The translations under genes and the position numbers were made by a program. Below the pieces are notes generated by a model. That model had not been told where the DNA came from and ran no database searches. It saw only the letters and a program-made list of their open reading frames with translations. A DNA stretch of 64,000 nucleotides from an uncultured Pseudomonadota bacterium (GTDB lineage: Bacteria; Pseudomonadota; Alphaproteobacteria; Rs-D84), in NCBI GenBank assembly GCA_902795435.1, contig CADBLE010000008.1:28028-92027 (forward strand). Reading direction: 5' to 3'. Below are positions 17,282 to 64,000 of this stretch, piece by piece (the first letter of the stretch is position 1; each line of letters starts with the position of its first letter).

Positions 17282-17303
17282 TTTTCTTTCCTTTCTTTTG
17301 TTA

Positions 17304-23375: not shown

Positions 23376-24110
23376 TTATTTGCCCTGATTTTTAAAATAA
23401 AGACGTGCATATTCTTCCATTATATCTACAACAATATATCTGTAACCAAATTTATCCCAATTGTGTGACGCGACATATAAACCATCTTTAAGAGTTTTGA
23501 ATTCAGTTAATTCCCAATCTATAAAGAAAGTTATATTGAATTTATCATCCAGCATAAAATTCTGCCAAATATCACCCTGGTTCCAACCATATAAAAATCC
23601 AGGTTTTTCGTTTTTATTTGGTTTCAAATCACGAATTTCTTTTGGGTCTGATTTTGCAACAACATATAAAAAATTAGCAATCTGTTTTGCAATATGATTA
23701 CGGTGCTGTGCGATAACACCTGGTTTTATATCGGTCAATAATTTCCCAGTTGCAAATTCATATTTACGAATATAAATGTTTTTATATGGTATAACCTTCA
23801 TCAACGGAATCTTTATCGGCGAAATTCCATAGAACGCATCAACAATACGTTTTTCACGCGCAGCAACTTCGCGTCCATCATTTAACAACGGAAATTTGAA
23901 AACATGTTTATTATTCAAAATCACAACAAAATTTTTACAGCCATACCCGACGGTTGTCTTGATTTTGCATTGTTTCATATTTTTAGCAAAATTACGAACA
24001 TAGCGAACATATTCACGTGTTTGCGGATATCGAATCATAGTGCGGACTTTGTCCCGCAAAGATTTACTCCAAATAAAACCACAAACAATATTAGAAATTA
24101 AATGACGCAT
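23376..24110 (-). CDS. Phosphotransferase (APH/choline-kinase-like) family protein, tandem paralog 2
   Basis: Colinear with 22653-23375 (QGDIWQNF, FIDWELTEF). Its stop TAA abuts the downstream ATG, giving TAAATG. Confidence 0.5.
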   Translation of the reverse strand: MRHLISNIVCGFIWSKSLRDKVRTMIRYPQTREYVRYVRNFAKNMKQCKIKTTVGYGCKNFVVILNNKHVFKFPLLNDGREVAAREKRIVDAFYGISPIKIPLMKVIPYKNIYIRKYEFATGKLLTDIKPGVIAQHRNHIAKQIANFLYVVAKSDPKEIRDLKPNKNEKPGFLYGWNQGDIWQNFMLDDKFNITFFIDWELTEFKTLKDGLYVASHNWDKFGYRYIVVDIMEEYARLYFKNQGK

Positions 24111-26996: not shown

Positions 26997-28232
26997 TTAC
27001 CCGTTATTGCCGGTTGTTGTTTGTTCTGGTGCACTGAAACGCCAGCCACGGAATGTTTTACCTTTCTTGGTTGCCGCTTTGACTGGGGTTCTGACGTCGC
27101 TGCCATATGTAGCGGTTCCGGCATTGTTTGCGGATATATCCGCTGCACTTGCATCCGACCAATTAATTGTAATTGTATTCGCTTCACATGATGCCAAACC
27201 ACCAGTTCCGGTTGCAGAACCGACCAACGCAGCACGGAACGCGAGGTTGGTCGGGTCCGAGTTATTCATGCCGCTCACACAGGCTCTAGCGCAGCTGTCC
27301 GCACAATTCGACGCGCTGTTGTAGCTGTTGTAGCTGTTGTAGAACACCCAAGGGGAGAGCACCGCTTGCAAGGTTCCACCATTCGGTGTATAGCCCGTCA
27401 CATTACAATAACAATTTGATGCGCCCTCTTGTCCCGTTTCGTCTGTTAAACTGCTTACAAAATGGTCAGATTCAAATGTATTATTATTGTAAGACCATTT
27501 ATTTGCTACACCACGTGTGCTACAACGGGCCTGACCAATCAACATACCCTTGGATGAACCGTAATCTACCACCCATGTGTTATTATCGCTTATGCCATAA
27601 TAACTTTGTTCTTGATGTACAACAACTTTACTGTCTTCACTGAAAGAACCGTTGTTGTTTATAGATGCACCCGCACCGGTGCCTGTACCAATTGCGGTTG
27701 CTAATTCACTGCTACTTATTCCTGATTTCAGATGCCATCCGTTTTCACAATCTGTTGCGCCACATTGGTTATTATCACCATAATAATAGCCACCCGTTAC
27801 GCCCGCAGAATGTTCTACATCCGCCGTTGTACATGTTCTGTAACAATCGTTTTGTGAATCAGAACCCGCTGCGGATAATGCGTATATACCGTCTGTCGCG
27901 GTGGAACATGAATTTATACCCTGGTCTGCGTTTTCATTATACAATGCATTTGTTAACCCAGGGCACCAAGAACCCGCTGGACATTGTGTTCCGTTTGTTG
28001 CGTCAGAACCAGCCGCCAAATAATTACCAGCGACGATATTATACAAGATATCTGTATATTCTGCGACCGCGTTTACGGTTCCCGAATATACACCGTCCAT
28101 ATTTGTTGATGTTGCCGCATTATCGTATGTTTTGTTTTCCTGCATATATCCGTTTGATGGAAACGTTTCCGCCATTGCAGGTAACACAAACCCCATTGCA
28201 AATGCACTGGTTAAAAATATATTCTTTTTCAT
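26997..28232 (-). CDS. Secreted Cys-rich surface protein paralog B, with C-terminal Flg_new-like domain
   Basis: Signal peptide MKKNIFLTSAFAMGFVLPAMA. The N-terminal block ETFPSNGYMQENKTYDNAATSTNMDGVY and the C-terminal block ASCEANTITINWS...GKTFRGWRFSAPEQTTT are shared with 16067-17281; the core is diverged. Confidence 0.75.
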   Translation of the reverse strand: MKKNIFLTSAFAMGFVLPAMAETFPSNGYMQENKTYDNAATSTNMDGVYSGTVNAVAEYTDILYNIVAGNYLAAGSDATNGTQCPAGSWCPGLTNALYNENADQGINSCSTATDGIYALSAAGSDSQNDCYRTCTTADVEHSAGVTGGYYYGDNNQCGATDCENGWHLKSGISSSELATAIGTGTGAGASINNNGSFSEDSKVVVHQEQSYYGISDNNTWVVDYGSSKGMLIGQARCSTRGVANKWSYNNNTFESDHFVSSLTDETGQEGASNCYCNVTGYTPNGGTLQAVLSPWVFYNSYNSYNSASNCADSCARACVSGMNNSDPTNLAFRAALVGSATGTGGLASCEANTITINWSDASAADISANNAGTATYGSDVRTPVKAATKKGKTFRGWRFSAPEQTTTGNNG

Positions 28233-28256
28233 GTTTTTCCTTCCTTTGTTTGTTAA

Positions 28257-28302
28257 ATAAAAAAAACAGACAAATAACGTCATAAACGTTATTTGTCTGT
28301 TT
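28257..28302 (-). promoter_or_regulatory. Terminator-like hairpin in the 5' leader of paralog B
   Basis: 17-bp stem 28264-28280 / 28286-28302, identical in sequence to the cassette A stem; only the loop differs. Confidence 0.6.
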
Positions 28303-28310
28303 TCATATTC

Positions 28311-28329
28311 GCGTGAATACAATTCACGC
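28311..28329. promoter_or_regulatory. Palindrome GCGTGAAT-ACA-ATTCACGC upstream of paralog B
   Basis: Perfect 8-bp arms; a covarying counterpart of 17358-17376. Confidence 0.5.
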
Positions 28330-28354
28330 AATTTATACACGCAACGAAACTATC

Positions 28355-38780: not shown

Positions 38781-41255
38781 TTACATCTTTACTTCTTTAC
38801 ATTCTTCTTCGCCATCTTTAACCTTGCAATCTCTATCGTTTCTGTTCCAACTGTATTTTCCGCCCTTCTTACATTCCTTGGTTGCGCGAGTTGTACAGAT
38901 TTTACATGTTCTGGTTGGTTTGTCAAAGTATGTAGATTTTGTTGTTCTAACGCCACTGACATCCATAGATTCATCCCAAGAAGCATCCCTGTCTGAACCA
39001 GTTGATTTCATAGAAGCCAAATCATTTACATCCAAACCAACACCAACATCATAGTATATTGCAAATGGTGCAGTCAAAGGTGATTGTTCTACAATACCCT
39101 TGTTACTTGATGACCCAGCACCAATATCTGCCATTTTCTTACACAGATATTCTGCTACTTCTGCACTAGAATCATTTGATGCTTTTTCTATGGCTTCTGT
39201 AACTTTCTTATTATAATTATCTTGTGCCTGACGCAAAGCAGACATACCAATCATTACACGATATTGATTCAACAATTTCGGGAAACGGGCTTCTGTTTGA
39301 TTTTTGCCATTCTTGTTATCTTTACCGTTGATTTGGCTCAAATCACGACCGTTGATACAATATTGGATTTGTTGGTCAGATTCAATCAAAGAAATTGTTC
39401 TGTTAATTGTTCCAGCAATGTTTTTCAATTCTTCTTCAATAGAAGAAATTATAGCGTCTGCATTAGGAACATTTTTATTATTTTTCTTGATTTCTTTGAT
39501 GTAATCTTGAACACCGATTTCACCAGGTTCAAGAACTCTTCCACCGTCTGTTACAGTACCACCAGCGTCACCCATTTTGATAGAACCAAATGAAATCATA
39601 CCAGTTACACGATATACGGTTCCATCTTTCTGGGATTTAACAGAACTTGTTCCGATATAGTTATCACTAGCAAAAGAATTACAATCTGTTGTTGAACCAC
39701 ACAATTCAAGCATTTTTTCTTCTGCTAAATTTTGACAGTTATCCAATGCCTTGTTATCTATGTTCAAATACAGACCCATCAACATAGAATCTAAATCAGA
39801 CATCTTGAAATCTGGGTTTGTTTGTTTACATACAACCAATTTATCAATTGGGCAAATATCATGTATGTAATCAAAATCCATACCTATACAATTCTTGAAA
39901 TCTTCACCACAACGGTCTTCGGCTGTAAAGCAATCTTTAACTTCTTTTGTACATGCATCAACACGCATAGAAGCCAATTTGCTTACAACGTAATCCCAAA
40001 TTTGTGGTTCCATTCTTTCGCATGGATCAATTTGGATTTTACAGAAAGAACGAGCCATATCTGGACGTGCAAGACATGCGTCCATTGTTGCTACACCCTT
40101 GCCTTCAATATCATCTTTACATGCTTTCTGGATACATGCAGAAATATCACCCAAACAAGATTGTCTTTTCTGAGATTCAATATTTTGTTCAGCCAATCTG
40201 ATTGTTGGTGCTGCTTCCCTTAAGAAATCGTCCCAAATTAAATCACGAACAGCAACGCAACTATCTAAAACTTTTTCACAAATAAAACGTTTTGATTCCA
40301 AAATACTCATTGTAGATGCTGTAATATCGTATGTATTCACAGTATCAATGCTTGTTCCTGCAACTGATTCTGCTTTATTATTTTGCATGTTTTCAGATGC
40401 AATTGTAAATACACATTGTCCCCAATCTGCACCACACGCGTCTTCGCTTTTCATACATTTTTTATATTCAACCATACATGTTCCACGATCATATTTGTTG
40501 GATTCTTCCAAACTTTCTTTCAAAGCATTACGAACCGCAGAATTTGCAGATGCTAACGCTGTTTTTGCTTCTGCTGTTTTTTGTTCAATACTGTTTGCCA
40601 AACCTTTACAATCTGAAACAATTTGACGAGAATACATCTGGGTCAACATTGTTAAATCTTTGGAACATTTGTCATCCATTTCAGATTTACACAATTGATG
40701 TGCCGCTGCATATAATTGGTTACCCGTCTTTGATGAAATATCTAAATCAAATTCTTCACCTTCTGATTCTTCATCTTCTTCATCAGCGTCATAAAAATTA
40801 GACCATTGTGTAGACGCTATTTTTGTTTTATCTTTTGTAGCAGTTGTTTGAACAACATTGTTGTTTTCATCATATTTTCTTGTTCCATTAAAGATAATAT
40901 CAGCATTTGCACCGGCCTGAACTTTTTCAACTTCTTCTGTGTTGATACGATCCGCTTCTGCTAACATTTTTTTGATATTTTCAAGATCGGCTTCATATTT
41001 TTTAATATCATCATTACAATTACAAGTTCCCCCAATTTCATTATCTACAATACAAAATTGGTCCATACATCCATAATATTGATCATAGCAATCTTGGTCA
41101 TATAAACCTTTGGAATCTACTTTCGCACGAACTTTTGTTCCAATAGAGATAGCCGCCTGTTTTTTTCCTGCCTTTGTCGCAGCAAAAGAATCTGCGGTTC
41201 CTAATAAAGCCCCAACAAATCCGAACACCAAACCAATATTTAACAACTTTTTCAT
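38781..41255 (-). CDS. Large secreted cysteine-dense protein, family member P1 (824 aa)
   Basis: Signal peptide MKKLLNIGLVFGFVGALLGTADSFA. Motif DCYDQYYGCMDQFCIVDNEIGGTCNC. Colinear Cys blocks shared with P2, P3 and P5. RBS GGGAGAG lies 17 nt after the P2 stop. Confidence 0.8.
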   Translation of the reverse strand: MKKLLNIGLVFGFVGALLGTADSFAATKAGKKQAAISIGTKVRAKVDSKGLYDQDCYDQYYGCMDQFCIVDNEIGGTCNCNDDIKKYEADLENIKKMLAEADRINTEEVEKVQAGANADIIFNGTRKYDENNNVVQTTATKDKTKIASTQWSNFYDADEEDEESEGEEFDLDISSKTGNQLYAAAHQLCKSEMDDKCSKDLTMLTQMYSRQIVSDCKGLANSIEQKTAEAKTALASANSAVRNALKESLEESNKYDRGTCMVEYKKCMKSEDACGADWGQCVFTIASENMQNNKAESVAGTSIDTVNTYDITASTMSILESKRFICEKVLDSCVAVRDLIWDDFLREAAPTIRLAEQNIESQKRQSCLGDISACIQKACKDDIEGKGVATMDACLARPDMARSFCKIQIDPCERMEPQIWDYVVSKLASMRVDACTKEVKDCFTAEDRCGEDFKNCIGMDFDYIHDICPIDKLVVCKQTNPDFKMSDLDSMLMGLYLNIDNKALDNCQNLAEEKMLELCGSTTDCNSFASDNYIGTSSVKSQKDGTVYRVTGMISFGSIKMGDAGGTVTDGGRVLEPGEIGVQDYIKEIKKNNKNVPNADAIISSIEEELKNIAGTINRTISLIESDQQIQYCINGRDLSQINGKDNKNGKNQTEARFPKLLNQYRVMIGMSALRQAQDNYNKKVTEAIEKASNDSSAEVAEYLCKKMADIGAGSSSNKGIVEQSPLTAPFAIYYDVGVGLDVNDLASMKSTGSDRDASWDESMDVSGVRTTKSTYFDKPTRTCKICTTRATKECKKGGKYSWNRNDRDCKVKDGEEECKEVKM

Positions 41256-41272: not shown

Positions 41273-43486
41273 TTACATGTTTATATCTTCGCAAGATTCA
41301 AGTTCTTGACAGAATTGTTTTTTACCACCAGATGCAGCACCCAATGCACCGGCACCAACCGCACCAACCAATCCACCAATGGCGGTTCCCCAACCTGCAC
41401 TGACCATTGTTCCAGCTGACGCACCAGCAGACAAACCACCCGCAGCTGCCTTTAATGCAGATGTAGCCTTGGATTCGCCACCTTCTTCGCAAACCTGTTG
41501 CATGCGACAAACATGACAATTACGCAAATTTGGTTCAAATGATACAGTATGGATATAACTGTAATTTGAAGATTTCTTTTCTTCATCTGGCTTTTCTGGT
41601 TTATATGTCTTCAAGCAAATTTCTTTTGCTTCTTCCAAATCTTTTTTACGTGCCAATTCTGCAATTTTGGAATCTAATTCACGCAAATTACGATTTTCAG
41701 CAGACATTTTCGCCAACAACTTAGCAGTCATAAACACACTGGTTCCCAAAGAATTTTTACCTTTTACCTTCTTGGTATCATCAGCAACACTTTGAGAATC
41801 CGCACATGCAGAAACAGTTTTATCTCTTTCAAATTGTGTAAAGAATTCTTCTACAGCAGCATCAGAATTTGCAACAACCGTCTTACGCAAAGCCATCAAA
41901 CCTTCTTCTGTATCTGGCAAATCTGTCAAAGATTCAACCGTTGCATCTATTGGCAAACAGGCCATATCTGTTCCACACACTTTTGACAATTGGTCACTGA
42001 AATAATTCACACAACCCTGCAACATCTGATAATCCATTTGCAAGATTGCAGATTGAACAATTATATCATATTGTGTTGCACCATTACATGATGGGAACAT
42101 ATCTTGTGGGCAGAGTGCAGCAATTTCGTACGGTTTTTTACCAACACATTCTGGTTTACTGAAATCTTGACCACATTTATCTTGCAAACATTTATCAATA
42201 TCGTTTTCACAGAACTTTGTTCTCAAAAAACCAAGTTTATCATTTATAACCGCTTGGAAACCTGGGATAATGGAATCACATTCTGTAATAATTGGACAGA
42301 TACCCGCCGCAACATTTACATTTGTTAAACATTCAGCATTTGTTGATGTTGCGCAACTATCTTCCAAACAATATTGTGCCTGGGCCAAACAAGTACCACG
42401 TCTGTGTTTATCAGCGTATTTTTCTGCATCAACCAAGATGCTTTTCATTTCCGCTTCCCAATCTTTTTTAACATAATCACGAACAGCCATACATTGATCC
42501 AAAACATTATCACAAGCATTAGAACGACGTTGTAATAATTTTTTATCAAGACAGTTTTCGAAATTAGTTCCACAACCACCCTTATCCGCAACGCACGCAC
42601 GATAAGCCAACAAACATTCACCACGGTTATATTTGTTTGTTATATCCAACATTTCAAGACGCGCTTTTCTAACCGCAGATTCAGCAATACGTTTATTTGA
42701 TTCAGCATTTGCTTTTTGATCTTTCAAATAAGCATCATAATTCTTACAATCTTGGGCAATCATACGTGTGTATAACATTGATTCCATTTCAGATTTAGAA
42801 CCACATGATTTCAATTCAGCAGAACAATATTTTACAGCCATTTTGTATAAATCATCACCCATTGTGACATCTTCACCAACCTCACCTTCATCGTCTTCGT
42901 CTTCTTCAGACCCCAACCATGCCAAGAAACTGGTTCCAGAAACACCCTTATTACCAGATTTTTCACTAAACACCAATGACGCTTTGGCACCTAATTGTTC
43001 ACGTTCTACACCTTCTGTGAATAATTTATCTGCCTCTGCTTGAATATCAAGAACGGCTTTAATTTTGCTTTTTGCAAGATTTATATTATCTGAACAAGCA
43101 CATCTTTCCCCCTGACTTTCGTCTAACAAACAGAATTGGTCCATACAATCACGATACGCATCACGACAATCGCCATTGCTACTCGCTGTCTTTGCCGGAA
43201 TCGATTCGGAAACTGGTTCTGAAACCACACTTGCATTTGCAGATTCTACATCAGTTTTTTCAACAACTGGTTCTTCTTCAACAAAATCTTCTTCCTCAGG
43301 AACTTCTTCTTTTTCAACGGTTCCAGCGACCAATGCTGCTTTAACATCAGCAGTTGTTATCGTCATACGATTTCCTGCTTGAGAATTTCTGTTCATGCCA
43401 ACACGTGCACTTGAATCAACACGTCCCGCACCAAACACAAGCGTTGGAAACACTAATAAAACCGGTAAAATATTTATTATTTTCAT
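41273..43486 (-). CDS. Large secreted cysteine-dense protein, family member P2 (737 aa), Gly-zipper C-terminal segment
   Basis: Signal peptide MKIINILPVLLVFPTLVFG. Motif DCRDAYRDCMDQFCLLDESQGERCAC. C-terminus AAGGLSAGASAGTMVSAGWGTAIGGLVGAVGAGALGAASGG. Confidence 0.8.
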   Translation of the reverse strand: MKIINILPVLLVFPTLVFGAGRVDSSARVGMNRNSQAGNRMTITTADVKAALVAGTVEKEEVPEEEDFVEEEPVVEKTDVESANASVVSEPVSESIPAKTASSNGDCRDAYRDCMDQFCLLDESQGERCACSDNINLAKSKIKAVLDIQAEADKLFTEGVEREQLGAKASLVFSEKSGNKGVSGTSFLAWLGSEEDEDDEGEVGEDVTMGDDLYKMAVKYCSAELKSCGSKSEMESMLYTRMIAQDCKNYDAYLKDQKANAESNKRIAESAVRKARLEMLDITNKYNRGECLLAYRACVADKGGCGTNFENCLDKKLLQRRSNACDNVLDQCMAVRDYVKKDWEAEMKSILVDAEKYADKHRRGTCLAQAQYCLEDSCATSTNAECLTNVNVAAGICPIITECDSIIPGFQAVINDKLGFLRTKFCENDIDKCLQDKCGQDFSKPECVGKKPYEIAALCPQDMFPSCNGATQYDIIVQSAILQMDYQMLQGCVNYFSDQLSKVCGTDMACLPIDATVESLTDLPDTEEGLMALRKTVVANSDAAVEEFFTQFERDKTVSACADSQSVADDTKKVKGKNSLGTSVFMTAKLLAKMSAENRNLRELDSKIAELARKKDLEEAKEICLKTYKPEKPDEEKKSSNYSYIHTVSFEPNLRNCHVCRMQQVCEEGGESKATSALKAAAGGLSAGASAGTMVSAGWGTAIGGLVGAVGAGALGAASGGKKQFCQELESCEDINM

Positions 43487-43897: not shown

Positions 43898-43969
43898 ATT
43901 TTTATTTTTTTGTAAAATACCCTTGCTTAAAACCACCTATTTTTGATATTATTATTAAAAGGTAAAGGA

Positions 43970-46336
43970 ATGAGGAAAATCTCTTTGATTTTATCAGCAC
44001 TGTTTTTGTGCATTGGTTTTAATACCAATGCTGCTGTTCGCACACCTCAATCCCCTGCCCGTCAATCAGAAACTAATGCACGTCAAACAGCAACCGCAAA
44101 AAAATCAGTTGTAAAAAATACAGAAACAAAATCTTCAAGAACAGCAACTTCTAAATCTGTAAAAAAAACTGTTTCTAATGTAAATCGTTCCGCAACAAAC
44201 AAAAAAACTGTTATGTCTAGAAATACGGCAAACGCATCTGTCCACAAAATTTCAACTGCACGTTCTGCGACAAAACAACAAAAAAGCAAAAACGCACGTG
44301 CAGCTGCCACAACAAAAACAGTTGCTTTCAGCGAACCATACATTGCATGTCGCGATGCTTATTTTTCATGCATGGACCAATTTTGCGCAACACAAAACGA
44401 AACATACAGAAGATGTGTATGTTCTTCTAAACTGACAAAAATTCAAGACACTGAAAAGAAAATAGACCAGACAGTAGATAGTTTGAAAGATTTCCAAGAC
44501 ATAAACATAGACGCAATTTCTAAAACATCTGCAGAAGTAAAAGCAATGGGTAATGCATCTGAAGGCGAAAGCGCTATGAAAAAAGATAAATCCAGCAGTG
44601 CAACTGCATTGAAAAATATTTCTGGGGTTCTGAATGACACAAAACAAAAATCATTACAAGAACCTGTTTCAACAAACAACAAAGCAATTTGGGGAACGAC
44701 AGATTTAATTGGCGGTTCTGATATTGCTGATTTAACTGGCGAACCATTGTATAATGCGGTTCATGCACAATGTGCAGAAATTGTTCAAGCAAGTTGTTCT
44801 GATTCTGATTTAAAAATGGTTTCGTCCGCATACGGTGTTTATATTGAAAACGATTGTGCATTATTAGAATCAGCATTAAACAATAAAAAGAATGCTACAA
44901 ATTCTTCAATCCGTTCTACAAGGCATCAAATGCAAGAAGCCCGTCTTGAAAATTATAATGCACACAATTCTTTATCATTAAACGATTGCATTGCAAAAGT
45001 CCGCGAAGATTTGACACAAGAAACCGCTTGCGGTAAAGATTATATTCACTGTCTGGATGTAACAGGTAAATATTTGAATATAACAACCGGCGAACCAATT
45101 TATTCCAAAGAATTTTATCAACTTGAAAATCAAATCTCGTTATCTGGTGATGTATTAAAAAATTCTACAAACAGTCTTGTTTTATCTGTATTGAACGATA
45201 AAAAAGCATTCGCACAAAAATCTCTTGATTTGTGCACAGACAATTCTACAGATGTATGGGAAGAATTTTTAAGACAGGCCATTGTTGAAATTTCCCAGGG
45301 ACAATTAAAGAGAATACAAAATGTTAAATCAGAATGTTTAAAGGTTGTAAATGATTGTTATCTTAAACAAACAGAACAAATAAAAGGTTTCTCTGATAAT
45401 TCATCTGAAATTTCGTTGGGAACAACCCTTGAATTATCCGAAGAAATGTGCAAAGAAAAATTGACCACATGCAGTAATTTATATGGTCATGGTTCAGATG
45501 GTCTTGAAATTTTAGTAAATACAATGAAAGGAATCACAGATTCAACCATTGCGCAAACATGCCCTGATTTATTAGATACCTTTATTACAAAAACATGTGC
45601 CGTATCATCAAATGATTCTAAACATTCTTTCCCATACGGATGTCGTGCATATGCACCGGGTGAACAACGTTATGCTGTGAATTCAATATGTAATTTATCA
45701 ACTATCAATCCTTTTGAACGTTCATCAACATCAACAATTGATGCATCATCATCAACAACAACCACAATAAATACTATGTACAATGTAGCAACACTTGTAA
45801 AATCGTTATCGTTAGTATTGAAATACACATATTGTAATTTCAATTATTATTTATTCTATTCTGATGGTGAAACAGAATGTAACGCTACCAACGAATGGTG
45901 TTATAATCAAACTAAAGCGACACAATGTAAAACATGTCCTACGGGATACCTGTGTATGGGGGGGCAAAACCCACCAACCCAAGGCGACCAAACAATAATA
46001 TATAAAAATTGTGGTGAAACATATATCGGTTCTCTTTATCATAAATTGGTCAGATACGCTTTACAAAACTGCGTTCGTCCATCCAGCAATTCTGGTGAAT
46101 TACCTGAAACACTGTTGGGGGATGTTGATAATGCGATGAAGAAAGTTAAACAAAAACTTGTTGCAGAATTATCAACAGAATGTTCTGACATGGGTGGTGT
46201 TTGGGTTGAAATTCCATGGAAAGATACCAATTCAGACGGAAAACATGACGACAACAAAGCGACATTATACGTAAAATTCTATACAACAACTGGTGCAAGT
46301 AATTTATGGGGATTCTGTGCAACACCGACAGAATAA
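43970..46336 (+). CDS. Large secreted cysteine-dense protein, family member P3 (788 aa)
   Basis: Signal peptide MRKISLILSALFLCIGFNTNA; basic Ser/Thr/Lys-rich N-region; motif ACRDAYFSCMDQFCATQNETYRRCVC; late CKTCPTGYLCMGG module. Confidence 0.8.
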   Translation: MRKISLILSALFLCIGFNTNAAVRTPQSPARQSETNARQTATAKKSVVKNTETKSSRTATSKSVKKTVSNVNRSATNKKTVMSRNTANASVHKISTARSATKQQKSKNARAAATTKTVAFSEPYIACRDAYFSCMDQFCATQNETYRRCVCSSKLTKIQDTEKKIDQTVDSLKDFQDINIDAISKTSAEVKAMGNASEGESAMKKDKSSSATALKNISGVLNDTKQKSLQEPVSTNNKAIWGTTDLIGGSDIADLTGEPLYNAVHAQCAEIVQASCSDSDLKMVSSAYGVYIENDCALLESALNNKKNATNSSIRSTRHQMQEARLENYNAHNSLSLNDCIAKVREDLTQETACGKDYIHCLDVTGKYLNITTGEPIYSKEFYQLENQISLSGDVLKNSTNSLVLSVLNDKKAFAQKSLDLCTDNSTDVWEEFLRQAIVEISQGQLKRIQNVKSECLKVVNDCYLKQTEQIKGFSDNSSEISLGTTLELSEEMCKEKLTTCSNLYGHGSDGLEILVNTMKGITDSTIAQTCPDLLDTFITKTCAVSSNDSKHSFPYGCRAYAPGEQRYAVNSICNLSTINPFERSSTSTIDASSSTTTTINTMYNVATLVKSLSLVLKYTYCNFNYYLFYSDGETECNATNEWCYNQTKATQCKTCPTGYLCMGGQNPPTQGDQTIIYKNCGETYIGSLYHKLVRYALQNCVRPSSNSGELPETLLGDVDNAMKKVKQKLVAELSTECSDMGGVWVEIPWKDTNSDGKHDDNKATLYVKFYTTTGASNLWGFCATPTE

Positions 46337-53692: not shown

Positions 53693-53749
53693 AACCAACA
53701 ACACAATTTTCATAACAAAAAAATTCATAAACAAAAAGACAATAAAAAA

Positions 53750-53775
53750 ACACCGATTAAATATCGGTGTTTTTA
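53750..53775. terminator. Bidirectional terminator between ccrM and P4
   Basis: Stem ACACCGAT (53750-57) / ATCGGTGT (53763-70) with A and T runs on either side. Confidence 0.75.
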
Positions 53776-53791
53776 TTTATATATCTGACGA

Positions 53792-55867
53792 TTACTTGTG
53801 TATGATACCATCCTTTTTGAAATAATCATAGCACATTTGTTCCAAACTGCCACTGTATGTTGCATTTGAAGCACCAGTTGTTGATACTGCTGAATCTGGC
53901 AAATGTAAATTCCACTTTACATAGAAATCTTTCAAAGAATCTATGGTGTGTGATTTACCCAATGAAACAGAATTCAAACCATCACCAACCTTACATGTAA
54001 TGTTACTGCGTTCAATCAAAGCGGTAATACCTGTTGCCAAACCACCAGCGGCCGCACCAGTTACAGCACCGATTGCCAAACCTTTACCGATTTCAGCGCC
54101 CTTGCTCAATTTCTTTGTTGAACCAGATTTTATACCAGATGGAATAACCGGAGCAATTTCATCTAACAATGAATTCATTCTGGCCAATTCATTTTTGATT
54201 TGGTTCACAGTTTTGCACATACCATTATGATTACAGAATGGATTATCTGGACCTTCTACTGCAAATCCAAGCTGTAATGGAACAAATAAACATTGTTCAT
54301 TAAATGTACGTATTTCATCATTAGTAATTCCATTAGCAGAACCACATATTACAGAACCAGACATAACAACACTATCACCTTCTGGGGTTCTGATTTCCAA
54401 TTTTTCGTATGCAGTTTGATTTTTTGCACTTTCAACCATCGCGGTCAATCTGTTGTTTGTTTGATTTGATGTACAAGATGCAATTGCGTCTTTATAAACA
54501 TTAGCCTTGGAATACAAATCAAGTATTGCATTACATTGTTGTTTGTTCAAATTATACCAATTTGTTTCTGGGCCAAATAATTTGTTAGAAGATGCTTCTT
54601 CAACTTCTGCCAAAGATTTACCATCTGTACCTGTTTTCAATTTAACATTTTCATACAAATATGTTTTTAATAAACCTTGGTTAGAAGTAGAAGTTATTTG
54701 CGCAGCCAATTTTCTGCGGTATTCATCATCAGCACAAGGATTCAAATCTTTGTTTGCCAATTCTTCTTCTGCTGCTGCAGCTGCTTTTGCTTTCTTGTCA
54801 TATACTGCGGCACCTGCACCTGCACCAATTGCAGCACCCAACAGAGTACCACCGCCAACACCAACAACAGCAACTGTTCTGGTATCATTTAACAGAGATT
54901 TGAAATCAAACAATTCTTTGTTACATGTAAATGTAGAACCTGTCTTTTCCCAAACTTCTGCAGGATTATTATTACCAACTGCACCGAACAACCAACTGTT
55001 TGTAATCAATTTATCTTTGTTATATGCAGCAACACGAATTAAACATTCTGCCTTTGATGCGTCCCAACGTGCATAATGACCACGATTTCCATCATAGCCA
55101 GCAGTATTTACCATAACACCTTGAGGATTCAATTTAGACAAATTGCCATCACCAGATTTGTTGTATGCACCAACACCATTATTGTATTCTGTATTCACAG
55201 CATTTGTATCAGATACCGCTGCAAATGAAGAACCGTATGTATTTCTGTCAATCAACAAACAAGTATTTTCAGCCTGGTTAGGTGTCAAACCTGTTTTACG
55301 TAAAACGAAATTATAATATTCTGGTTGAACGATAGAACAATTGAAATTCATCCAAACATCAGCATTGGAAGAATAAACATTTTTACAATCAACACGAACT
55401 TCGCGGATACATTTATCAATTTGGGCCTGACATAATCTCATTCCACCCATGATAGAATTACGAACTTCGTCATTAAACATATCGTTTAAACCACCCTGTA
55501 ATGCACCACCATTGATACATTGCAAAACATCATCCATACACATAGTTGTTGTGTATGTGGAATTTTTTACACCACCATCTTCGCATTCAGGTGTTGGTGT
55601 TGGGGTATCAGGTGTTGGAACAACCGGTGTCGGCACAATACTGCCACCAGAAACACTTAAATTTCCAGACAAATCAATATTCTGAACCGCAGGATTTCCG
55701 ACCGTATTCAAAGACACAACCGGCATAGTTGGCATACGTGCAGTGTTTACATTTTGTGGCATCACACTGCGACTTGCACGACCATTATCAGCAGCATTTA
55801 CACCGCTGAAAGCCAGCATAACTGCGAAACTTGTAAGTGTTATTCCAAAATAATTTAATGTTTTCAT
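53792..55867 (-). CDS. Secreted Cys-rich protein P4 with two glycine-zipper hydrophobic segments (691 aa)
   Basis: Signal peptide MKTLNYFGITLTSFAVMLAFSGVNA; Pro/Thr linker PTPVVPTPDTPTPTPEC; segments VGVGGGTLLGAAIGAGAGAAV and GLAIGAVTGAAAGGLATGITALI. Confidence 0.7.
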   Translation of the reverse strand: MKTLNYFGITLTSFAVMLAFSGVNAADNGRASRSVMPQNVNTARMPTMPVVSLNTVGNPAVQNIDLSGNLSVSGGSIVPTPVVPTPDTPTPTPECEDGGVKNSTYTTTMCMDDVLQCINGGALQGGLNDMFNDEVRNSIMGGMRLCQAQIDKCIREVRVDCKNVYSSNADVWMNFNCSIVQPEYYNFVLRKTGLTPNQAENTCLLIDRNTYGSSFAAVSDTNAVNTEYNNGVGAYNKSGDGNLSKLNPQGVMVNTAGYDGNRGHYARWDASKAECLIRVAAYNKDKLITNSWLFGAVGNNNPAEVWEKTGSTFTCNKELFDFKSLLNDTRTVAVVGVGGGTLLGAAIGAGAGAAVYDKKAKAAAAAEEELANKDLNPCADDEYRRKLAAQITSTSNQGLLKTYLYENVKLKTGTDGKSLAEVEEASSNKLFGPETNWYNLNKQQCNAILDLYSKANVYKDAIASCTSNQTNNRLTAMVESAKNQTAYEKLEIRTPEGDSVVMSGSVICGSANGITNDEIRTFNEQCLFVPLQLGFAVEGPDNPFCNHNGMCKTVNQIKNELARMNSLLDEIAPVIPSGIKSGSTKKLSKGAEIGKGLAIGAVTGAAAGGLATGITALIERSNITCKVGDGLNSVSLGKSHTIDSLKDFYVKWNLHLPDSAVSTTGASNATYSGSLEQMCYDYFKKDGIIHK

Positions 55868-56004: not shown

Positions 56005-56964
56005 ATGAACAAAATAAAAGAATTCTTGCAAACAAATCTGATTGTATTGAAATGGGGTTTATACTATTTCATTGGACTGTGGTTTATTTTGGAATTTTTG
56101 TTTGGTTTTAATTTGTTATCTGCACAACATTGGCACAAATTCTTTCATTCCAGTTTTCATGGTTTTGCCGGATTTACATTTCAAATAATTATGTATGCCG
56201 CATTACCAATATTTATTGCAAGTGTTATAACAATATACAGAACGAAAGAACCAATAATAAAAATAACTATTTTTGATAAAATCAAAGAATACTTAAAAGG
56301 TCTGAAACCGACAACCGCTGAAGAATCAAAAGAAGAAACAACACCGGAAAACGAATCGGAACCAGAATATATCTATCCGAACGATTTACCACGTGAATTA
56401 CGCATTCCGTTTAAACGTGCCAAAGAAAGAATTGGTATCCGTGGCCCAGTATCCGCATATAATCAAATTCATCAAACAAAAAACGAAACACTGGAACAAC
56501 CAACACCAGAATCAACGGACGCGTTCCCTATTCCATCAGATTTTGATATATCTGATACATTTGACGAAAATGATACACAATCATTAAATGAAATACCTGT
56601 ATTCCAAGATTTAGATTTTGATACACCAATCATGACTGAAAAAAAATTAGAAAACGAAACAACAAAATATTTTGATAATAAAAAAATAGAATATGAAACA
56701 AATAAAAATTTTGTTATCACAGATAAATATGTAATCTATGAACATAATGATGGCGATTTTTGGATAATGGATAATGAGGCATGGTTTGCCGCTGGAAAAC
56801 AAATAGATTCCCCTGTTCCAGAAATTTTACAAATTGCAAAAATGAACAGTTTAATACCAATCATATATTTACAATCTGAAAACATTATGGATATAGAAAC
56901 AACAATATCTAATTTTGAAAACAATGGCATTCGTGTAATAAAAAGTCTGGCTGAATTAGATTAA
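56005..56964 (+). CDS. Hypothetical membrane protein (N-terminal TM helices, acidic linker, C-terminal globular domain)
   Basis: ORF track; hydrophobic N-terminal third; own terminator; no family recognised. Confidence 0.5.
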   Translation: MNKIKEFLQTNLIVLKWGLYYFIGLWFILEFLFGFNLLSAQHWHKFFHSSFHGFAGFTFQIIMYAALPIFIASVITIYRTKEPIIKITIFDKIKEYLKGLKPTTAEESKEETTPENESEPEYIYPNDLPRELRIPFKRAKERIGIRGPVSAYNQIHQTKNETLEQPTPESTDAFPIPSDFDISDTFDENDTQSLNEIPVFQDLDFDTPIMTEKKLENETTKYFDNKKIEYETNKNFVITDKYVIYEHNDGDFWIMDNEAWFAAGKQIDSPVPEILQIAKMNSLIPIIYLQSENIMDIETTISNFENNGIRVIKSLAELD

Positions 56965-57032: not shown

Positions 57033-57057
57033 TAAAAAAACCACCCGTTTGGGTGGT
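57033..57057 (-). terminator. Terminator after Cys-rich paralog P5
   Basis: Stem ACCACCC (57040-46) / GGGTGGT (57051-57) with an A-run on the plus side. Confidence 0.7.
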
Positions 57058-57065
57058 TTTTGTTT

Positions 57066-59834
57066 TTATTGACCTGTCTTATCAACCAAGCTTCCTCTGT
57101 TTACTTTCTTCATAGGAATCTTGTCTGTTGCTGTAACTTTTGCATCTTTGTCTTGTTGCCAACTCCAGCAACAACCCGCAACACGTCTTGAACAACGATA
57201 TTCTTTACGTGTTACAGTACATGTGCTTGTAGCGGAATCATACGCAACTGTTGCACCGTATGTAACACCACGACGGCCACGTCTTGTGCAACCTGTATAG
57301 AAATCAGGTGTTTCTTTTCTTGCGTTACACATAGCTTCATTATATCTATGTTGTTTATCCGCTTCGAATTGAACGATTTCATCTATACGTGCATCAAGTT
57401 TCTTTTGTACGTCATCCCATTTGTCTTCTTTCAACTTATTGATTTGACCTGCATAAAGTTCCCATAATTGGTCAACCAATTGTTGTGCAATAACAACCTT
57501 GTAAGCATCTAACAAGTTAGGGAATCTTGCACCATTACCAGAATCAGAAGGAGATGTTCCATCTTTCTTGGAAATGCCTTGGAAATCTTTACCAACCAAA
57601 CAAGCGTTCACAGTTCTGTCTGCTTGAATTTGTTTGATTTTCAGATTGAAAGCATTCTGCATAGCAACTTCCAATTTTTCCAAATCAGATTCTTTATATC
57701 CCGCTGTCGCATCAACATTTGTCAAAGGATCATGAGAGAAGATTTTTTCTGGAACCGGTGTTGCATTTGCATTTGCATTTGCTGCATCTTGTGCAACTGG
57801 GGCAACTGGTGTTGCAGAAAAGTCCTTATATCCAACAACTGACAAATCTAAACGACCAACGACACGTGGTGTAATCTTACCGGCAATCAAATCTTCTTTA
57901 GCAAATGAATATGCATCTGCTGAACAAGTTGTTGTGCCTTCTTTACACAATTGAACTGTCAAGATATCGTTTACGAACAAGTTATCTGACAAAGTTGCGT
58001 TTTCACAAGTTGTTGTTCCACCACAAACTTCTGTCATTGCTTTATCCGCAGCTTCTTCACAGATTTCGCCATAAGAATTATTGATATTCAAAGCCAAACC
58101 TTGCGCAACTTCTGCAACATAATCTTGAACTGTGTCTTTGTTATATTTTGTTTGGCAAGCGATAAGTTTGTCAAATGGGCAAAGAGCAACTATACGATCT
58201 GTAGATAAACCAATACAGCCAGCATAATCTTCACCGCAACGATCTTCGCTTTGCAAACATTCTTTAATTTGTTCTGTACATCTATCAACACGGTCTGCAG
58301 CCAATTTAGCCTGAACGTATGCAACAACGTCATTTTCAGAACCTACATCACCGCAACGTTTGATTTCTAATGAACAGTAGTTTTTAATAGAATCTGGATT
58401 TGACAAACATGAATCGTAGTTGTCTGTTCCTTCATCCATACCTGCAGATTTACATGATTTCTTTACACAGTTAATGATTGTTGTTAAACAATTCATACGT
58501 GAATTAGAAGCCATGTTATATTCTGTATTATAAACTGTCAAAGCAATGTCTTTCATAAATTCACCAAGAACTTTACCGCCAGCCAATGTAACACCACCGT
58601 TAGCGTTTTGACATTGACGAACAACAGATTCACAACGCATTGCTTTATTCTGCAAGATATCGTATGTTGCAGAAGAAATTGTTACAGTTGTAGCACCTGT
58701 TTTGATTTGGGTTGTAGCAACCTTACCATTTTTTGTGCCTTTTGTTTTTCCATATAAAGCACTCAAAATAGAAGTGTCAGCAACGCAACCGCCGAAATCT
58801 GTTCCGCATTCACCAGTTGTTTGCATACATTGTTTAAACGCGATTACGCAAGAACCCAAATCTTCGTATTTGTTTTTGTTCTTTTCTTCGTCCAACAATG
58901 CTTCACGAACTGCTCTTTGTGCTGTTTGCAATTTTTGAGCAGATGCTGTTCTTTGTTGTTTCAAAGCATTTTCGTAACCCGTACAATCTGAACGGATTTT
59001 TTGAGCGTATGTTTGTTGCAACATAGCAGCTGCTGTTTTACATTGACTTGGGATTTGTTGTGTACAAATCTTTGCGGCAGATTTATGTAATTCATCACCT
59101 TTTTTGTTTGCCAAATCATCTTCGATTTTGAAATCGTCTTTTTCTTCGTCTCCACCGAATATTTCATCATCATCAAACATAGATGAATTATTCCAAGCAG
59201 ACAAATCTAATTCTCTCTTCTTTGATGTATTAGCAGCAGCCTGTTGCTTTTTTTCTTCATCGGTCAAGAATTCTTTTTCCAAAGATTTTGCACGAGCATC
59301 AATTTGAGAAGCCAATTCACCCATTTGGACTTTTTCAACACCCTGTGTTGCCAAATTCATACTCTTTTCGTCCAACTTCATAATTTCATCAAGAATCTTG
59401 TCTAATTCTGTAATTCTGTCATTACATTGACAACGACCACCAGAAGCATTATCCATCATACAGAAAGCGTCCATACATCCATAGTATGCATTTTGACATT
59501 CTGTACTTATAGTTGTGTTTTCAACAGCAGTTGAAACCTTGGTTCCCATGTTGATTGCTTTCTTAGTAGCAGCAGCACGCGCACCATTTGGTTTACCAGC
59601 AGATGGCTTTGTTGCAGCAGCATTTGAACCACCAGTTGTTGAACCTGTGGATTTGCCAGGATTAGTAACCTTGCCACCACCCATTTTTGCGGCACGGGCG
59701 CCATTTGGTTTTGGTGCGGCACTGGCATTTGAACCAGATGTTCCACCACCACGTCCACTACGAGGTGCAGCGAAAGTGCTGGTTTCCACGGCACACATAG
59801 CCATGATTATCGGTAAAATTAAAAGTTTTTTCAT
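57066..59834 (-). CDS. Large secreted cysteine-dense protein, family member P5 (922 aa)
   Basis: Start trimmed to MKKLLILPIIMAMCAVETSTFA (ATG at 59832-59834). Gly/Ala/Lys-rich N-region with KPNGARAA twice. Motif ECQNAYYGCMDAFCMMDNASGGRCQC. Colinear with P1. Confidence 0.8.
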   Translation of the reverse strand: MKKLLILPIIMAMCAVETSTFAAPRSGRGGGTSGSNASAAPKPNGARAAKMGGGKVTNPGKSTGSTTGGSNAAATKPSAGKPNGARAAATKKAINMGTKVSTAVENTTISTECQNAYYGCMDAFCMMDNASGGRCQCNDRITELDKILDEIMKLDEKSMNLATQGVEKVQMGELASQIDARAKSLEKEFLTDEEKKQQAAANTSKKRELDLSAWNNSSMFDDDEIFGGDEEKDDFKIEDDLANKKGDELHKSAAKICTQQIPSQCKTAAAMLQQTYAQKIRSDCTGYENALKQQRTASAQKLQTAQRAVREALLDEEKNKNKYEDLGSCVIAFKQCMQTTGECGTDFGGCVADTSILSALYGKTKGTKNGKVATTQIKTGATTVTISSATYDILQNKAMRCESVVRQCQNANGGVTLAGGKVLGEFMKDIALTVYNTEYNMASNSRMNCLTTIINCVKKSCKSAGMDEGTDNYDSCLSNPDSIKNYCSLEIKRCGDVGSENDVVAYVQAKLAADRVDRCTEQIKECLQSEDRCGEDYAGCIGLSTDRIVALCPFDKLIACQTKYNKDTVQDYVAEVAQGLALNINNSYGEICEEAADKAMTEVCGGTTTCENATLSDNLFVNDILTVQLCKEGTTTCSADAYSFAKEDLIAGKITPRVVGRLDLSVVGYKDFSATPVAPVAQDAANANANATPVPEKIFSHDPLTNVDATAGYKESDLEKLEVAMQNAFNLKIKQIQADRTVNACLVGKDFQGISKKDGTSPSDSGNGARFPNLLDAYKVVIAQQLVDQLWELYAGQINKLKEDKWDDVQKKLDARIDEIVQFEADKQHRYNEAMCNARKETPDFYTGCTRRGRRGVTYGATVAYDSATSTCTVTRKEYRCSRRVAGCCWSWQQDKDAKVTATDKIPMKKVNRGSLVDKTGQ

Positions 59835-59859
59835 AAAGTACTCCTTAACCTTTACGGTT

Positions 59860-59888
59860 ATTTTATCATAATCACCAAATATTGACAA
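59860..59888 (-). promoter_or_regulatory. Candidate sigma-70 promoter of P5
   Basis: On the minus strand: TTGTCA (59883-88), 17-nt spacer, TAAAAT (59860-65), about 25 nt before the ATG. Confidence 0.45.
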
Positions 59889-60035
59889 GCACATTTTTAT
59901 ACAAAAAAAGAAAAAATTTCTACATTTTGAAAAATTTTTATAAAAAAACACATCTTATATTTGACAAACCATTTTTATCGTGCTAGTTTTTGTCGGCTTG
60001 CCCTAAAAAAAGTGGGTCAAAATAAAGGTTAAAAA

Positions 60036-60419
60036 ATGAGATTAAAAAAACGTACTTATGTAATAGACATAAAATCTTTTCCTCAGGTTTTTTGCGATCA
60101 CTATGCCGATCACACTTATATTCCTGTGACAATATTATCTGTCAATGGACAAAAAATTCCAAGACCAACATCTGAAATACCAACAAAATTATTACCATCA
60201 TTTGAAACAATCAGAATGTTGGCTGATTTTTATTACAAACCAAAATCACATACAAGATATTCTTTGACGGTTGTTGAATATCACACCAGAAACCAAGAAC
60301 CAATTGCGTATTTATATCCAAACGGTATGGTGTCTTATACAAAACACCCAACAAACAATGCAATCAAACGCGATATAGCATATCAAATTGCATTACGTCA
60401 AAACGCATTGTCTAAATAA
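60036..60419 (+). CDS. Hypothetical protein (127 aa)
   Basis: ORF track; upstream TTGACA-N17-TAGTTT; own terminator; no family recognised. Confidence 0.45.
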   Translation: MRLKKRTYVIDIKSFPQVFCDHYADHTYIPVTILSVNGQKIPRPTSEIPTKLLPSFETIRMLADFYYKPKSHTRYSLTVVEYHTRNQEPIAYLYPNGMVSYTKHPTNNAIKRDIAYQIALRQNALSK

Positions 60420-62310: not shown

Positions 62311-64000
62311 CTAATTTCCCGCAGGTTCTTTGTTTGTTATATGATACATTTTTTCAAAACTCATTGGTATTTCCGCTATTTCAAAGCACCAATTCTGATT
62401 TTGTTTGTCTTTTATGCAAAACTTTTTTGCATCAATATATGTATTGCAAACACTTGATTGACAAGTTGTTTCATCACTAGAATTACATACGGTTCCCTTG
62501 CCACTTGTCGTTTTACCGTTTTGGCACGCAACACAATTACCAACTGCGCCACTACACGCCATACCTTTCCAAGAATAAGTTCCCTGGACACATTCATATT
62601 TATCACCATTCATACAACAAGAACCCGCCGGACATTCTGTCCAAACATTGCTTTCTTGATAGTATGTATTTGCATCATCCACTACTTTAGCCAATTCAGC
62701 ATATGTTAAACACCATTTCAATTTCATGTTACTTGAATCTGTATATAAAGCGGTATTCCCACCACATGTTTCGCATTTAAAAGTGTTTGTGCTTGTATCC
62801 CACAAGAATCCCTTGTTATCTGAACATGGTTTGCAAGTGTGAGGTGCCTGGTCGGTTCCTATGTTAACACCATTAGGGCAACCTTGACAAACCGTTCCGT
62901 GTCCACCTTCTGTAACAATATCTACAATTTGCCCAGCAGTTGGATTAGCAGCAGCTTGACCACACACACAACTATTGCCTACGACACGTTCTATATCTTT
63001 GCATTGATGACAAACACGAATATTATGGTTACCATCATTGAACGTACTAAATTTTACCACTCTAAAATCTTCATATTCTGCTGAGTTTGTTGCTTGTAAC
63101 TCATAAGTGTCTGGATATCCATTTACTATAGAACATTCTGCATATTCAAAACCGCTATAATAACTATCTTCATGATTTTCTCTATATGTTACTTCTGATA
63201 CAATCTCATATGTTTTGTTTGAATTGTGTAAAAAACCCTTATTTGAATTATTAACACCTTTTTTTAAAGATACACATGAATTATTAAAGGTTCCATTAGT
63301 TTGCCCATTTACTGTTCCGAACGGACATTTTATCTTTGTTTTTCTATTACATGCAAAATTTTTCGGACAAGGTTGACAAGTTTGTTCCGAAAACCATTGG
63401 TCTGTATCACACTGTTCACATTTACCTTCTTCTGTATTAAAATATTGATATTCACCACAACAAACGTTTACATTTGTATCTCCAGCAGATACAGTATACG
63501 AATTATCACATGTTTCTACACACTCTTTGCTATCAAAATCATAATACCCACTGCAATAAGCACAACTGCCATCTTGTATTACTTGATAATCACCACATTC
63601 TAATTCACAAGAATAGACCCTTGGTTTTTTTATATCTTGTTTTGACGTCATTCCATAAATAGAACATTTAACACATTGACTATAGGATGTTCCTTCTATT
63701 ATTTGGGAAAATTTCCCATATCCTTTTTCATTATTAAATCCAGTCTCAGTACAATAGTTAACACACCTAGAATTATCATATTTTGCAACTTGGACAGACC
63801 CACACGTTTTATACTTATAATAATATTTCTCATTTCCATCTGAAACTTCGTCCGGCACTTTTCCAAAATCATTTTCACTGGTATATGTTATACATTTATA
63901 TCCCTCAGTATCTTCAACTGACGTTTCACCTGGGTGTTCGTCACCACCGCATTTCCGACATTCACCGTTTTCGGTGTCTCGCCCATATCCTTTCTTACAA
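62311..64000 (-). CDS. CxxC-repeat, extremely Cys-rich protein P6 (N-terminus beyond window edge)
   Basis: The ORF track starts it at a GTG (63858), but the frame stays open to position 63999 (manual translation: CKKGYGRDTENGECRKCGGDEHPGE...). Many C-x2-C modules: CQPCPKNFAC, CHQCKD, CQGCPNG, CKPCSD, CETCGG, CVACQNG, CPAGSCCMNG. Confidence 0.7.
   Translation of the reverse strand, partial: CKKGYGRDTENGECRKCGGDEHPGETSVEDTEGYKCITYTSENDFGKVPDEVSDGNEKYYYKYKTCGSVQVAKYDNSRCVNYCTETGFNNEKGYGKFSQIIEGTSYSQCVKCSIYGMTSKQDIKKPRVYSCELECGDYQVIQDGSCAYCSGYYDFDSKECVETCDNSYTVSAGDTNVNVCCGEYQYFNTEEGKCEQCDTDQWFSEQTCQPCPKNFACNRKTKIKCPFGTVNGQTNGTFNNSCVSLKKGVNNSNKGFLHNSNKTYEIVSEVTYRENHEDSYYSGFEYAECSIVNGYPDTYELQATNSAEYEDFRVVKFSTFNDGNHNIRVCHQCKDIERVVGNSCVCGQAAANPTAGQIVDIVTEGGHGTVCQGCPNGVNIGTDQAPHTCKPCSDNKGFLWDTSTNTFKCETCGGNTALYTDSSNMKLKWCLTYAELAKVVDDANTYYQESNVWTECPAGSCCMNGDKYECVQGTYSWKGMACSGAVGNCVACQNGKTTSGKGTVCNSSDETTCQSSVCNTYIDAKKFCIKDKQNQNWCFEIAEIPMSFEKMYHITNKEPAGN

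Follow-up and report, generated by a model that had tools for sequence, protein, structure and literature searches.

What does a large, exported and cysteine-rich protein without a detectable known relative do directly behind rpoA and rplQ in a gut alphaproteobacterium, and why is one part of it nearly identical among strains whose other part cannot be aligned? The protein, P5, is encoded on the minus strand of a stretch of DNA of 64,000 nucleotides (nt), hereafter the window, to whose positions all coordinates refer; it belongs to the CMDxFC family of paralogs, labelled P1, P2, P3 and P5. A previous reading of the sequence by itself (the sequence-only reading) had described P5 as the fourth and largest member of this family, which is borne out by a six-frame motif search: exactly four open reading frames (ORFs) of the window carry CMDxFC, and P5 is the longest. 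What that reading had missed is the main new finding, namely that the C-terminal third of P5 is, on the evidence of comparison between strains, an exchangeable cassette. P5 might thus be an exported, disulfide-stapled helical stalk with an exchangeable interaction head, a proposal to which we give about an even chance.

Exchange of the C-terminal cassette

The reading frame of P5 spans 57066–59951 on the minus strand; from the ATG at 59834 it yields a product of 922 amino acids (aa), the length predicted earlier after trimming of the start, and this product contains the string ECQNAYYGCMDAFCMMDNASGGRCQCNDRITELDKILDEIMKLDE (the CMDAFC segment) that had been quoted for it. Its parts are as follows.

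57066–59834, minus strand: coding sequence of P5 (922 aa and a stop codon), with 38 cysteines in the mature protein
59769–59834, minus strand: signal peptide, residues 1–22, consisting of MKK, a hydrophobic stretch and a TFA-A cleavage site cut after TFA (read by eye from the sequence)
59517–59768, minus strand: basic, acid-free, disordered N-terminal region with repeated ARAA, residues 23–106 (predicted local distance difference test, pLDDT, of AlphaFold2 below 50 for residues 1–106)
59688–59711, minus strand: KPNGARAA copy 1, residues 42–49 (sequence and ortholog comparison)
59571–59594, minus strand: KPNGARAA copy 2, residues 81–88, running straight into the nearly invariant ..KKAINMGTKV
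58170–59516, minus strand: conserved cysteine-rich alpha-helical core, residues 107–555 (AlphaFold2 helices and ortholog alignment)
59424–59498, minus strand: family signature C-x6-CMDxFC-x9-CxC, residues 113–137 (motif search and alignments)
58785–58850, minus strand: four-cysteine repeat copy 1, C-x6-C-x6-CGxD[FY]xxC, residues 329–350 (hhalign)
58215–58280, minus strand: four-cysteine repeat copy 2, residues 519–540 (hhalign)
57069–58169, minus strand: hypervariable, exchanged C-terminal cassette, approximately residues 556–922 (drop in DNA identity against the close strain L085)

Between the window and L085, RpoA is 98.8%, CcrM 98.6% and a 691-aa neighbour of P5 93% identical at the protein level; the core of P5 is 87% identical and its C-terminal third 25%, with 0.91 nonsynonymous (dN) and 1.1 synonymous (dS) substitutions per site. 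On the DNA level, identity amounts to 85–98% over 10 kb, falls to 32–45% exactly at 58170–57097 and is back to 87–91% just past the stop codon of P5. In eight close relatives, residues 85–600 are nearly identical and the remainder exists as two unalignable types. When 117 orthologs are clustered at ≥50% identity, the N-terminal core falls into 3 clusters and the C-terminal third into 66; many pairs of orthologs share 90–98% of the core and ~25% of the C-terminal third, a single core cluster (≥80% identity) bears up to 4 types of head, and 8 head types are found on more than one core cluster. Strain L088 illustrates the exchange: compared with L089, its flanks are 92–100% identical but 1.1 kb at the 3′ end of the gene agree at 29–51% only; compared with L001, the flanks reach no more than 65–85%, yet ~1.5 kb at the 3′ end of the gene are 97–100% identical.

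The exchanged heads are not decaying but functional, since dN/dS inside one head type is 0.2–0.3. The C-terminal third is poorly conserved in sequence, and among its cysteines only C745, C836, C872 and C889 never vary in 49 orthologs; all head types keep these four cysteines and a set of short motifs, which argues that they share one fold. In the AlphaFold2 model of P5 this part consists of helices, one of them ~60 residues long, followed by a small beta domain with a pLDDT of ~90; the beta part spans just ~50 residues. Weak matches to levivirus coat proteins (such as PP7 and Q-beta) over 50–70 residues recurred for the C-terminal sheet of ~60 residues in both structure searches carried out with Foldseek (residues ~857–907 of P5, ~768–823 of P1); with non-significant E-values of 3–6, this likeness was not accepted.

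Variability of this sort could also arise in a protein that never leaves the periplasm: the four paralogs would then assemble within the envelope into a lattice rich in disulfides, on the model of the cysteine-rich outer-membrane complex of chlamydiae, and the C-terminal third would either co-evolve with a variable partner or be weakly constrained. That P1 is highly conserved, as a structural protein would be, agrees with such a scaffold. So does the fact that tiny genomes keep P5 in their syntenic core, and peptidoglycan or the inner leaflet might be what the basic N-terminus binds. P5 has a Sec signal only and no outer-membrane translocation feature, and as it has no evident way of crossing the outer membrane the scaffold retains some weight, although we consider it rather unlikely. 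Weak constraint fails to explain the purifying selection within head types, and the lattice explains neither why the replacement is discrete and sharply bounded nor why heads 97–100% identical are found on cores and flanks just 65–85% identical. Moreover, the conserved neighbouring genes do not co-vary with the head type.

A sharply bounded and horizontally exchanged C-terminal module in a protein of three-part layout also brings to mind polymorphic toxins and bacteriocins (colicins, pyocins, CdiA), in which case P5 would begin with a disordered region for translocation, continue with a helical shaft that binds a receptor and end in a killing domain that can be exchanged. The conserved N-terminal part with a delimited, exchanged C-terminus resembles CdiA-CT and Rhs proteins as well as colicins and pyocins, and the disordered N-terminus that of colicins. 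However, this appears quite improbable. The heads keep the same four cysteines and motifs and thus one fold, where diverse toxin folds would be expected; no gene on the same strand follows P5, the next one being convergent, and because DNA identity returns to 87–91% right after the P5 stop there is no co-varying immunity gene. The two flanking genes, encoding proteins of 319 and 127 aa, do not track the head type either, orphan cassettes were not found in the window, and no toxin was matched in Pfam, PADLOC or PHROGs. Also, the P5 gene belongs to the syntenic core and is not accessory, and colicins are not known to have a signal peptide or a high cysteine content.

As to the source of the cassettes, silent donor copies were sought by searching the 117 head sequences against the window, where they matched only P5 and the C-termini of its paralogs. 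P1 was rejected as a recent donor of heads (~25% identity).

The cysteine framework and the paralogs

Across the 49 P5 orthologs (36–87% identity), 33 cysteine columns are 100% conserved. The core accounts for 26 of them, mostly in C-x6-C arrangement, and 29 are reached up to residue 610; ten of the spacings between cysteines are exactly 7 residues and lie inside predicted helices. The two four-cysteine repeats were detected by a profile–profile match between the two halves (hhalign probability 88%, E 2.9e-6). When cysteines are counted from the first invariant one onward, their number is even in 114 of 117 P5-type proteins (34, 36, 38, 40, 42, 44 or 46) and in all 121 P1-type proteins, 116 of which have 36; with even counts in 235 of 238 proteins, gains and losses of cysteines must have come in pairs. 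Such parity is what one expects of a protein whose cysteines all engage in intramolecular disulfides, which would fit an exported protein and disfavour metal ligands, and it implies ~19 putative disulfides in P5 and about 17–23 over the proteins of both types. Taken together, the even-number rule and the heptad spacing suggest a new disulfide-stapled helical fold.

The opposite view of the cysteines, as ligands of a metal or cofactor in a redox protein, could draw on their abundance in an anaerobe and on the pyruvate:ferredoxin oxidoreductase (PFOR) and ferredoxin-type metabolism encoded in the window. It is, however, very improbable. CxxC and CxxCH motifs were not found in P5, nor did it match any Fe-S or cytochrome family of Pfam; the paired gain and loss of cysteines speaks against ligands, and a heptad spacing along helices suits stapling and not the binding of clusters. 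Helices paired by regularly spaced disulfides are known from the twin-Cx9C and Cx3C (CHCH) hairpins and from the Sel1-like repeats of the Helicobacter Hcp proteins; these differ from P5 in spacing, size and compartment, and no Sel1 or CHCH match was obtained with Pfam (for Sel1, none at E≤1).

Export is indicated by the signal peptide, whose cleavage consensus among P5 orthologs is ..GAFA-A, cut before the last alanine. Neither the signal peptide of P5 nor the consensus of its orthologs contains a canonical lipobox, and the reading of P5 as a lipoprotein was rejected: a cysteine is present in the signal peptide of just 61% of the orthologs, its −1 residue is Leu or Met, and the conserved AFA-A site follows after it. 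The N-terminal region of the orthologs is basic and rich in Ala, Thr, Gly and Ser (A 25%, T 14%, G 10%, R+K 15%, D+E <1%). The KPNGARAA duplication noticed earlier in P5 is present and is a conserved feature of the family, because the orthologs carry one to four copies of ARA[AG], the last of which continues into the nearly invariant ..QKVINMGTKV. Within the window ARA[AG] occurs twice in P5, once in P3, where the echo ARAAATT had been pointed out, and by chance in ClpX; it is found nowhere else.

AlphaFold2 models of P5 and P1 (mean pLDDT 68 and 71) agree in their layout of long helices and a small C-terminal beta domain. With Foldseek, the P5 model found no fold match in the Protein Data Bank (PDB) or among viral structures and the P1 model none in the PDB (best E 0.06–0.67), and the PDB gave no match to a single sequence or to a family profile of 64 sequences. 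Scans of all four paralogs with Pfam, NCBIfam, PADLOC and PHROGs returned nothing above noise, the sole marginal matches being to a low-complexity Gly-zipper in the 737-aa paralog; a tblastn search of P5 against 50,697 phage records was likewise negative.

The other three members of the family are the following; with P5 they occupy ~10 kb of this genome.

38781–41255, minus strand: P1 (824 aa), which evolves slowly and is conserved as far as approximately residue 680
41273–43486, minus strand: paralog of 737 aa, located on the strand of P1 and 17 nt upstream of it, whose C-terminus has a hydrophobic segment rich in Gly/Ala
43967–46336, plus strand: P3, 789 aa, the most divergent paralog, carrying ARAAATT and devoid of the second four-cysteine repeat

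All four proteins start with a signal-peptide-like sequence (basic n-region, hydrophobic stretch, small-x-small site), as judged by eye. P5 is 30% identical to P1 over 724 aa (residues 86–808 of P5, E 4e-93 in composition-corrected BLASTP) and reaches E-values of 2e-33 and 5e-15 with the other two paralogs. The colinearity of P5 and P1, postulated earlier for their whole length with two P5-matching segments as examples, both of which do occur in P1, therefore holds for residues 86–808; the last ~110 residues lie beyond the end of the BLASTP alignment and their colinearity rests on few aligned cysteines. The similarity is not compositional only, which had been named as the finding that would overturn the proposed kinship: 100 shuffled P1 sequences reach at most 25 bits, as compared to 301 bits for P1 itself, and the four-way alignment of the paralogs, a step the sequence-only reading had recommended, reveals a conserved framework of ~24 cysteines invariant in all four.

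The family is functionally diversified, as had been suspected, and its members evolve at a different pace. P1 orthologs are 64–79% identical over 100% of their length and vary only in the last ~140 residues; in the same genomes P5 orthologs, with their hypervariable C-terminal third, fall to 36–45%. The 737-aa paralog and P1 are probably co-transcribed, because a mere 17 nt separate them on the same strand. In the last ~70 residues of the 737-aa paralog the glycine-zipper-like, Gly/Ala-rich hydrophobic segment is followed by ..CQELESCEDINM; the C-terminus of P1 is similar (..CKEVKM) and some P5 orthologs (P0006, P0007) finish with ..ISM. Such Met-ending C-termini may be a conserved C-terminal signal.

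A putative surface protein and the bacterium that encodes it

If P5 is a stalk with an exchangeable head, a structural role at the cell surface can be outlined. The protein would be Sec-exported to the envelope or surface of a gut alphaproteobacterium resembling Candidatus Enterousia (order Rs-D84); after cleavage of the signal peptide, the basic, disordered ARAA tail would serve as a tether to an anionic component of the envelope. The helical core of ~450 residues, locked by disulfides at heptad C-x6-C spacing, would form a protease-resistant stalk or scaffold common to the four paralogs, with the conserved P1 supplying an invariant version of it. The head of ~370 residues, constant in fold and extremely variable in sequence, moves between strains by homologous recombination and would contact something outside the cell, such as the surface of a partner or host cell, a phage or an antibody, and frequency-dependent selection might keep many head types in the population.

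Several points weigh against this reading. An outer-membrane beta-barrel or autotransporter domain was not found in P5, no recognisable secretion-system partner is encoded nearby, and without these and a lipobox the protein could stay in the periplasm. The sequence-only reading had suggested looking for positive selection or recombination across strains; recombination was found as the exchange of cassettes, whereas an overall dN/dS above 1 was not, substitutions between head types being saturated. All comparison sequences are metagenome assemblies, so that single pairings of core and head could be chimeric; the boundary between core and head recurs across many independent assemblies, samples and assemblers. 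The AlphaFold2 models are of moderate confidence (predicted template modelling scores 0.38 and 0.47), and disulfides in a strict fermenter devoid of a respiratory chain would require an oxidase.

Nonetheless, the discrete allelic types of one domain that recombine among close strains are what characterises variable surface proteins in the functional sense, which is not a family by homology, and P5 has them; the family behaves like such proteins, its architecture being new. A close parallel in layout is provided by the intimin/invasin adhesins, whose N-terminal anchor is conserved and whose variable, receptor-binding C-terminal domain defines allelic types. In common with P5 they have conserved N-terminal two thirds and a C-terminal module of ~300 residues, of which discrete types with a single fold are exchanged by recombination. 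Intimin, however, is beta-rich, with a LysM domain and a beta-barrel for the outer membrane, whereas P5 is alpha-helical and cysteine-rich with neither barrel nor Pfam match, which leaves an analogy only; PF03797 or related families have no match in P5, while the true autotransporter of the window scores 8.7e-30. P5 resembles chlamydial OmcB in being a large, Sec-exported and cysteine-rich protein of the envelope whose N-terminal region is basic, and its bacterium likewise has an autotransporter with Pmp repeats; unlike OmcB, it lacks a Chlam_OMP6 or DUF11 match (Pfam, NCBIfam) and is helical instead of beta, and a recombining head is not known in OmcB. Among eukaryotes, the Duffy-binding-like (DBL) domains of the Plasmodium PfEMP1 and EBA proteins are disulfide-stapled, largely helical extracellular modules with a mosaic, recombination-driven diversity, and the VSPs of Giardia form the cysteine-rich coat of a gut-dwelling parasite; P5 shares no sequence, profile or fold match with either, has no CxxC and shows the C-x6-C spacing.

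More speculative, and unlikely in our estimate, is the proposal that the four CMDxFC paralogs jointly build one hitherto undescribed, disulfide-stapled alpha-helical surface structure specific to Rs-D84, with P1 as the invariant scaffold and P5 as an exchangeable specificity subunit whose head would set the partner-cell or host surface for attachment of these obligately dependent bacteria or their susceptibility to phage. Such a multi-paralog structure would be the bacterial counterpart, with a new fold, of the variant, cysteine-rich coats that eukaryotic parasites of gut and blood wear.

The window has a G+C content of 35–37% and encodes PFOR, FtsH, a GroEL-like protein, ClpXP, LptC, an OmpA-family protein and an autotransporter with Chlamydia-Pmp repeats; from these genes the bacterium can be taken to be an anaerobic diderm with lipopolysaccharide. 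At least 367 relatives of P5 are present in a collection of 5.8 billion proteins, all of them unnamed or "hypothetical" and none with a Pfam domain; where sources are named, they are metagenome-assembled genomes of uncultured gut Alphaproteobacteria. Among 1.84 billion cluster representatives, 1017 family members were found with a profile at E≤1e-3. From a pattern scan of one genome per species in the Genome Taxonomy Database (GTDB), 80 of 213 coding stretches were kept, and these 80 stem from metagenome-assembled genomes of animal gut samples (rumen, faeces), many named Candidatus Enterousia. As far as these searches go, the uncharacterised CMDxFC family appears restricted to small-genome gut Alphaproteobacteria (Candidatus Enterousia/order Rs-D84).

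Enterousia, a member of order Rs-D84, has genomes below 1 Mb with missing transporters and neither a tricarboxylic acid cycle nor respiration; the lineage was predicted to be an obligate symbiont or parasite drawing metabolites from other cells, and no cultured representative has been reported (PMC12306168). No paper tying Rs-D84 to cysteine-rich proteins was found in the literature. These bacteria are widespread in animal guts. With its site fixed beside the ribosomal-protein/rpoA cluster, no detectable relative of known function or structure, and the population-genetic signature of pressure from outside, dozens of head types having moved between lineages, P5 is a concrete first candidate for the interface of the lineage with host, partner or phage; its head could also serve as a marker for strain typing.

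Locus, expression signals and neighbouring genes

Synteny was compared over loci on long contigs and over those of 80 species representatives. In most of the relatives the order rpsM, rpsK, a cysteine-rich gene, rpoA, rplQ, the P5 ortholog, a convergent gene for a 319-aa membrane protein and one for a cysteine protein of ~690 aa is kept and continues with a CcrM-like methylase, nrdR, slt, rnhB, pgk, clpP and clpX; a P5 ortholog directly 3′ of rpoA-rplQ is found in ~70 of the 80 representatives. The three other paralogs of the window begin just past clpX, 10.7 kb from P5 and separated from it by nine housekeeping or conserved genes; paralogs stand in tandem beside the P5 ortholog in L003, L009, L010, L012, L015, L023 and L024. 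The sequence-only reading had taken P5 to be dispersed to a separate locus with its own transcription signals. Such signals can be recognised, but dispersal was overstated: given the conserved position behind rpoA-rplQ and the tandem paralogs of the relatives, the P5 site is a stable anchor of the family and not a dispersed copy.

The signals are consensus matches and were located where they had been placed.

59860–59888, minus strand: promoter-like TTGTCA-N17-TAAAAT with TG extension, 10 of 12 consensus matches, joint top score of the region
59841–59846, minus strand: ribosome-binding site AAGGAG, 6 nt 5′ of the P5 ATG
57034–57061, minus strand: intrinsic-terminator-like, GC-rich hairpin CCACCC-AAAC-GGGTGG followed by T7, directly 3′ of the P5 stop

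In the P5 region 17 promoter-like sites were seen against 13.4 expected from shuffles; the predicted promoter stands out by its joint best score and correct placement. An independent transcription unit for P5 is plausible because rplQ upstream has a terminator-like hairpin of its own (60462–60432).

On the other side of P5 lie two genes that are syntenic with its orthologs.

56005–56964, plus strand: convergent neighbour, 319-aa membrane protein without family match
53792–55867, minus strand: exported protein of 691 aa with 19 cysteines and two Gly-zipper-like hydrophobic segments (Gly/Ala), syntenic in most relatives

The 319-aa protein has N-terminal membrane helices and an acidic linker, is always encoded convergently with the P5 ortholog and is 83% identical between the window and L085; it shows no co-variation with head type, and the same is true of the 127-aa protein. 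The cassette shared by L088 and L001 appears to reach the 3′ end of the 319-aa gene, with 91–93% identity as opposed to 65–85% in the flanks. The 691-aa protein contains MCMDDVLQC but was rejected as a fifth member of the CMDxFC family (hhalign probability 0.1%); the extreme 3′ end of its gene (~53712–53818) is also replaced between the window and L085.

The 127-aa ORF (60036–60419, plus strand) is encoded opposite to rplQ and P5 in the space between them; it has no family match, recurs in several relatives and is fast-evolving, with 39–42% identity where CcrM has 87–93%. Immediately upstream of rpoA a very cysteine-rich ORF (62311–64000, minus strand; 8.5% cysteine, >560 aa) leaves the end of the window and forms an odd insertion within the ribosomal-protein/rpoA cluster; the gene between rpsK and rpoA in L001, L003 and L089 encodes 251–665 aa with weak Ephrin_rec_like/NCD3G matches.

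Farther away, 16067–17320 and 26997–28340 (both minus strand) encode a pair of exported paralogs with 14 and 15 cysteines and no Pfam match, which are nearly identical in segments at both termini (e.g., ...CEANTITINWS...GWRFSAPEQTTT) and represent a further lineage-specific family of cysteine-containing secreted proteins. The autotransporter with the Pmp repeats (19280–22552, minus strand; 1090 aa) has no cysteine at all, unlike the cysteine-rich families around it. Two adjacent paralogous ORFs of ~240 aa (22653–23375 and 23376–24110, both minus strand) have similar N-termini (..NI(I/V)CGFI..) and only a weak APH match.

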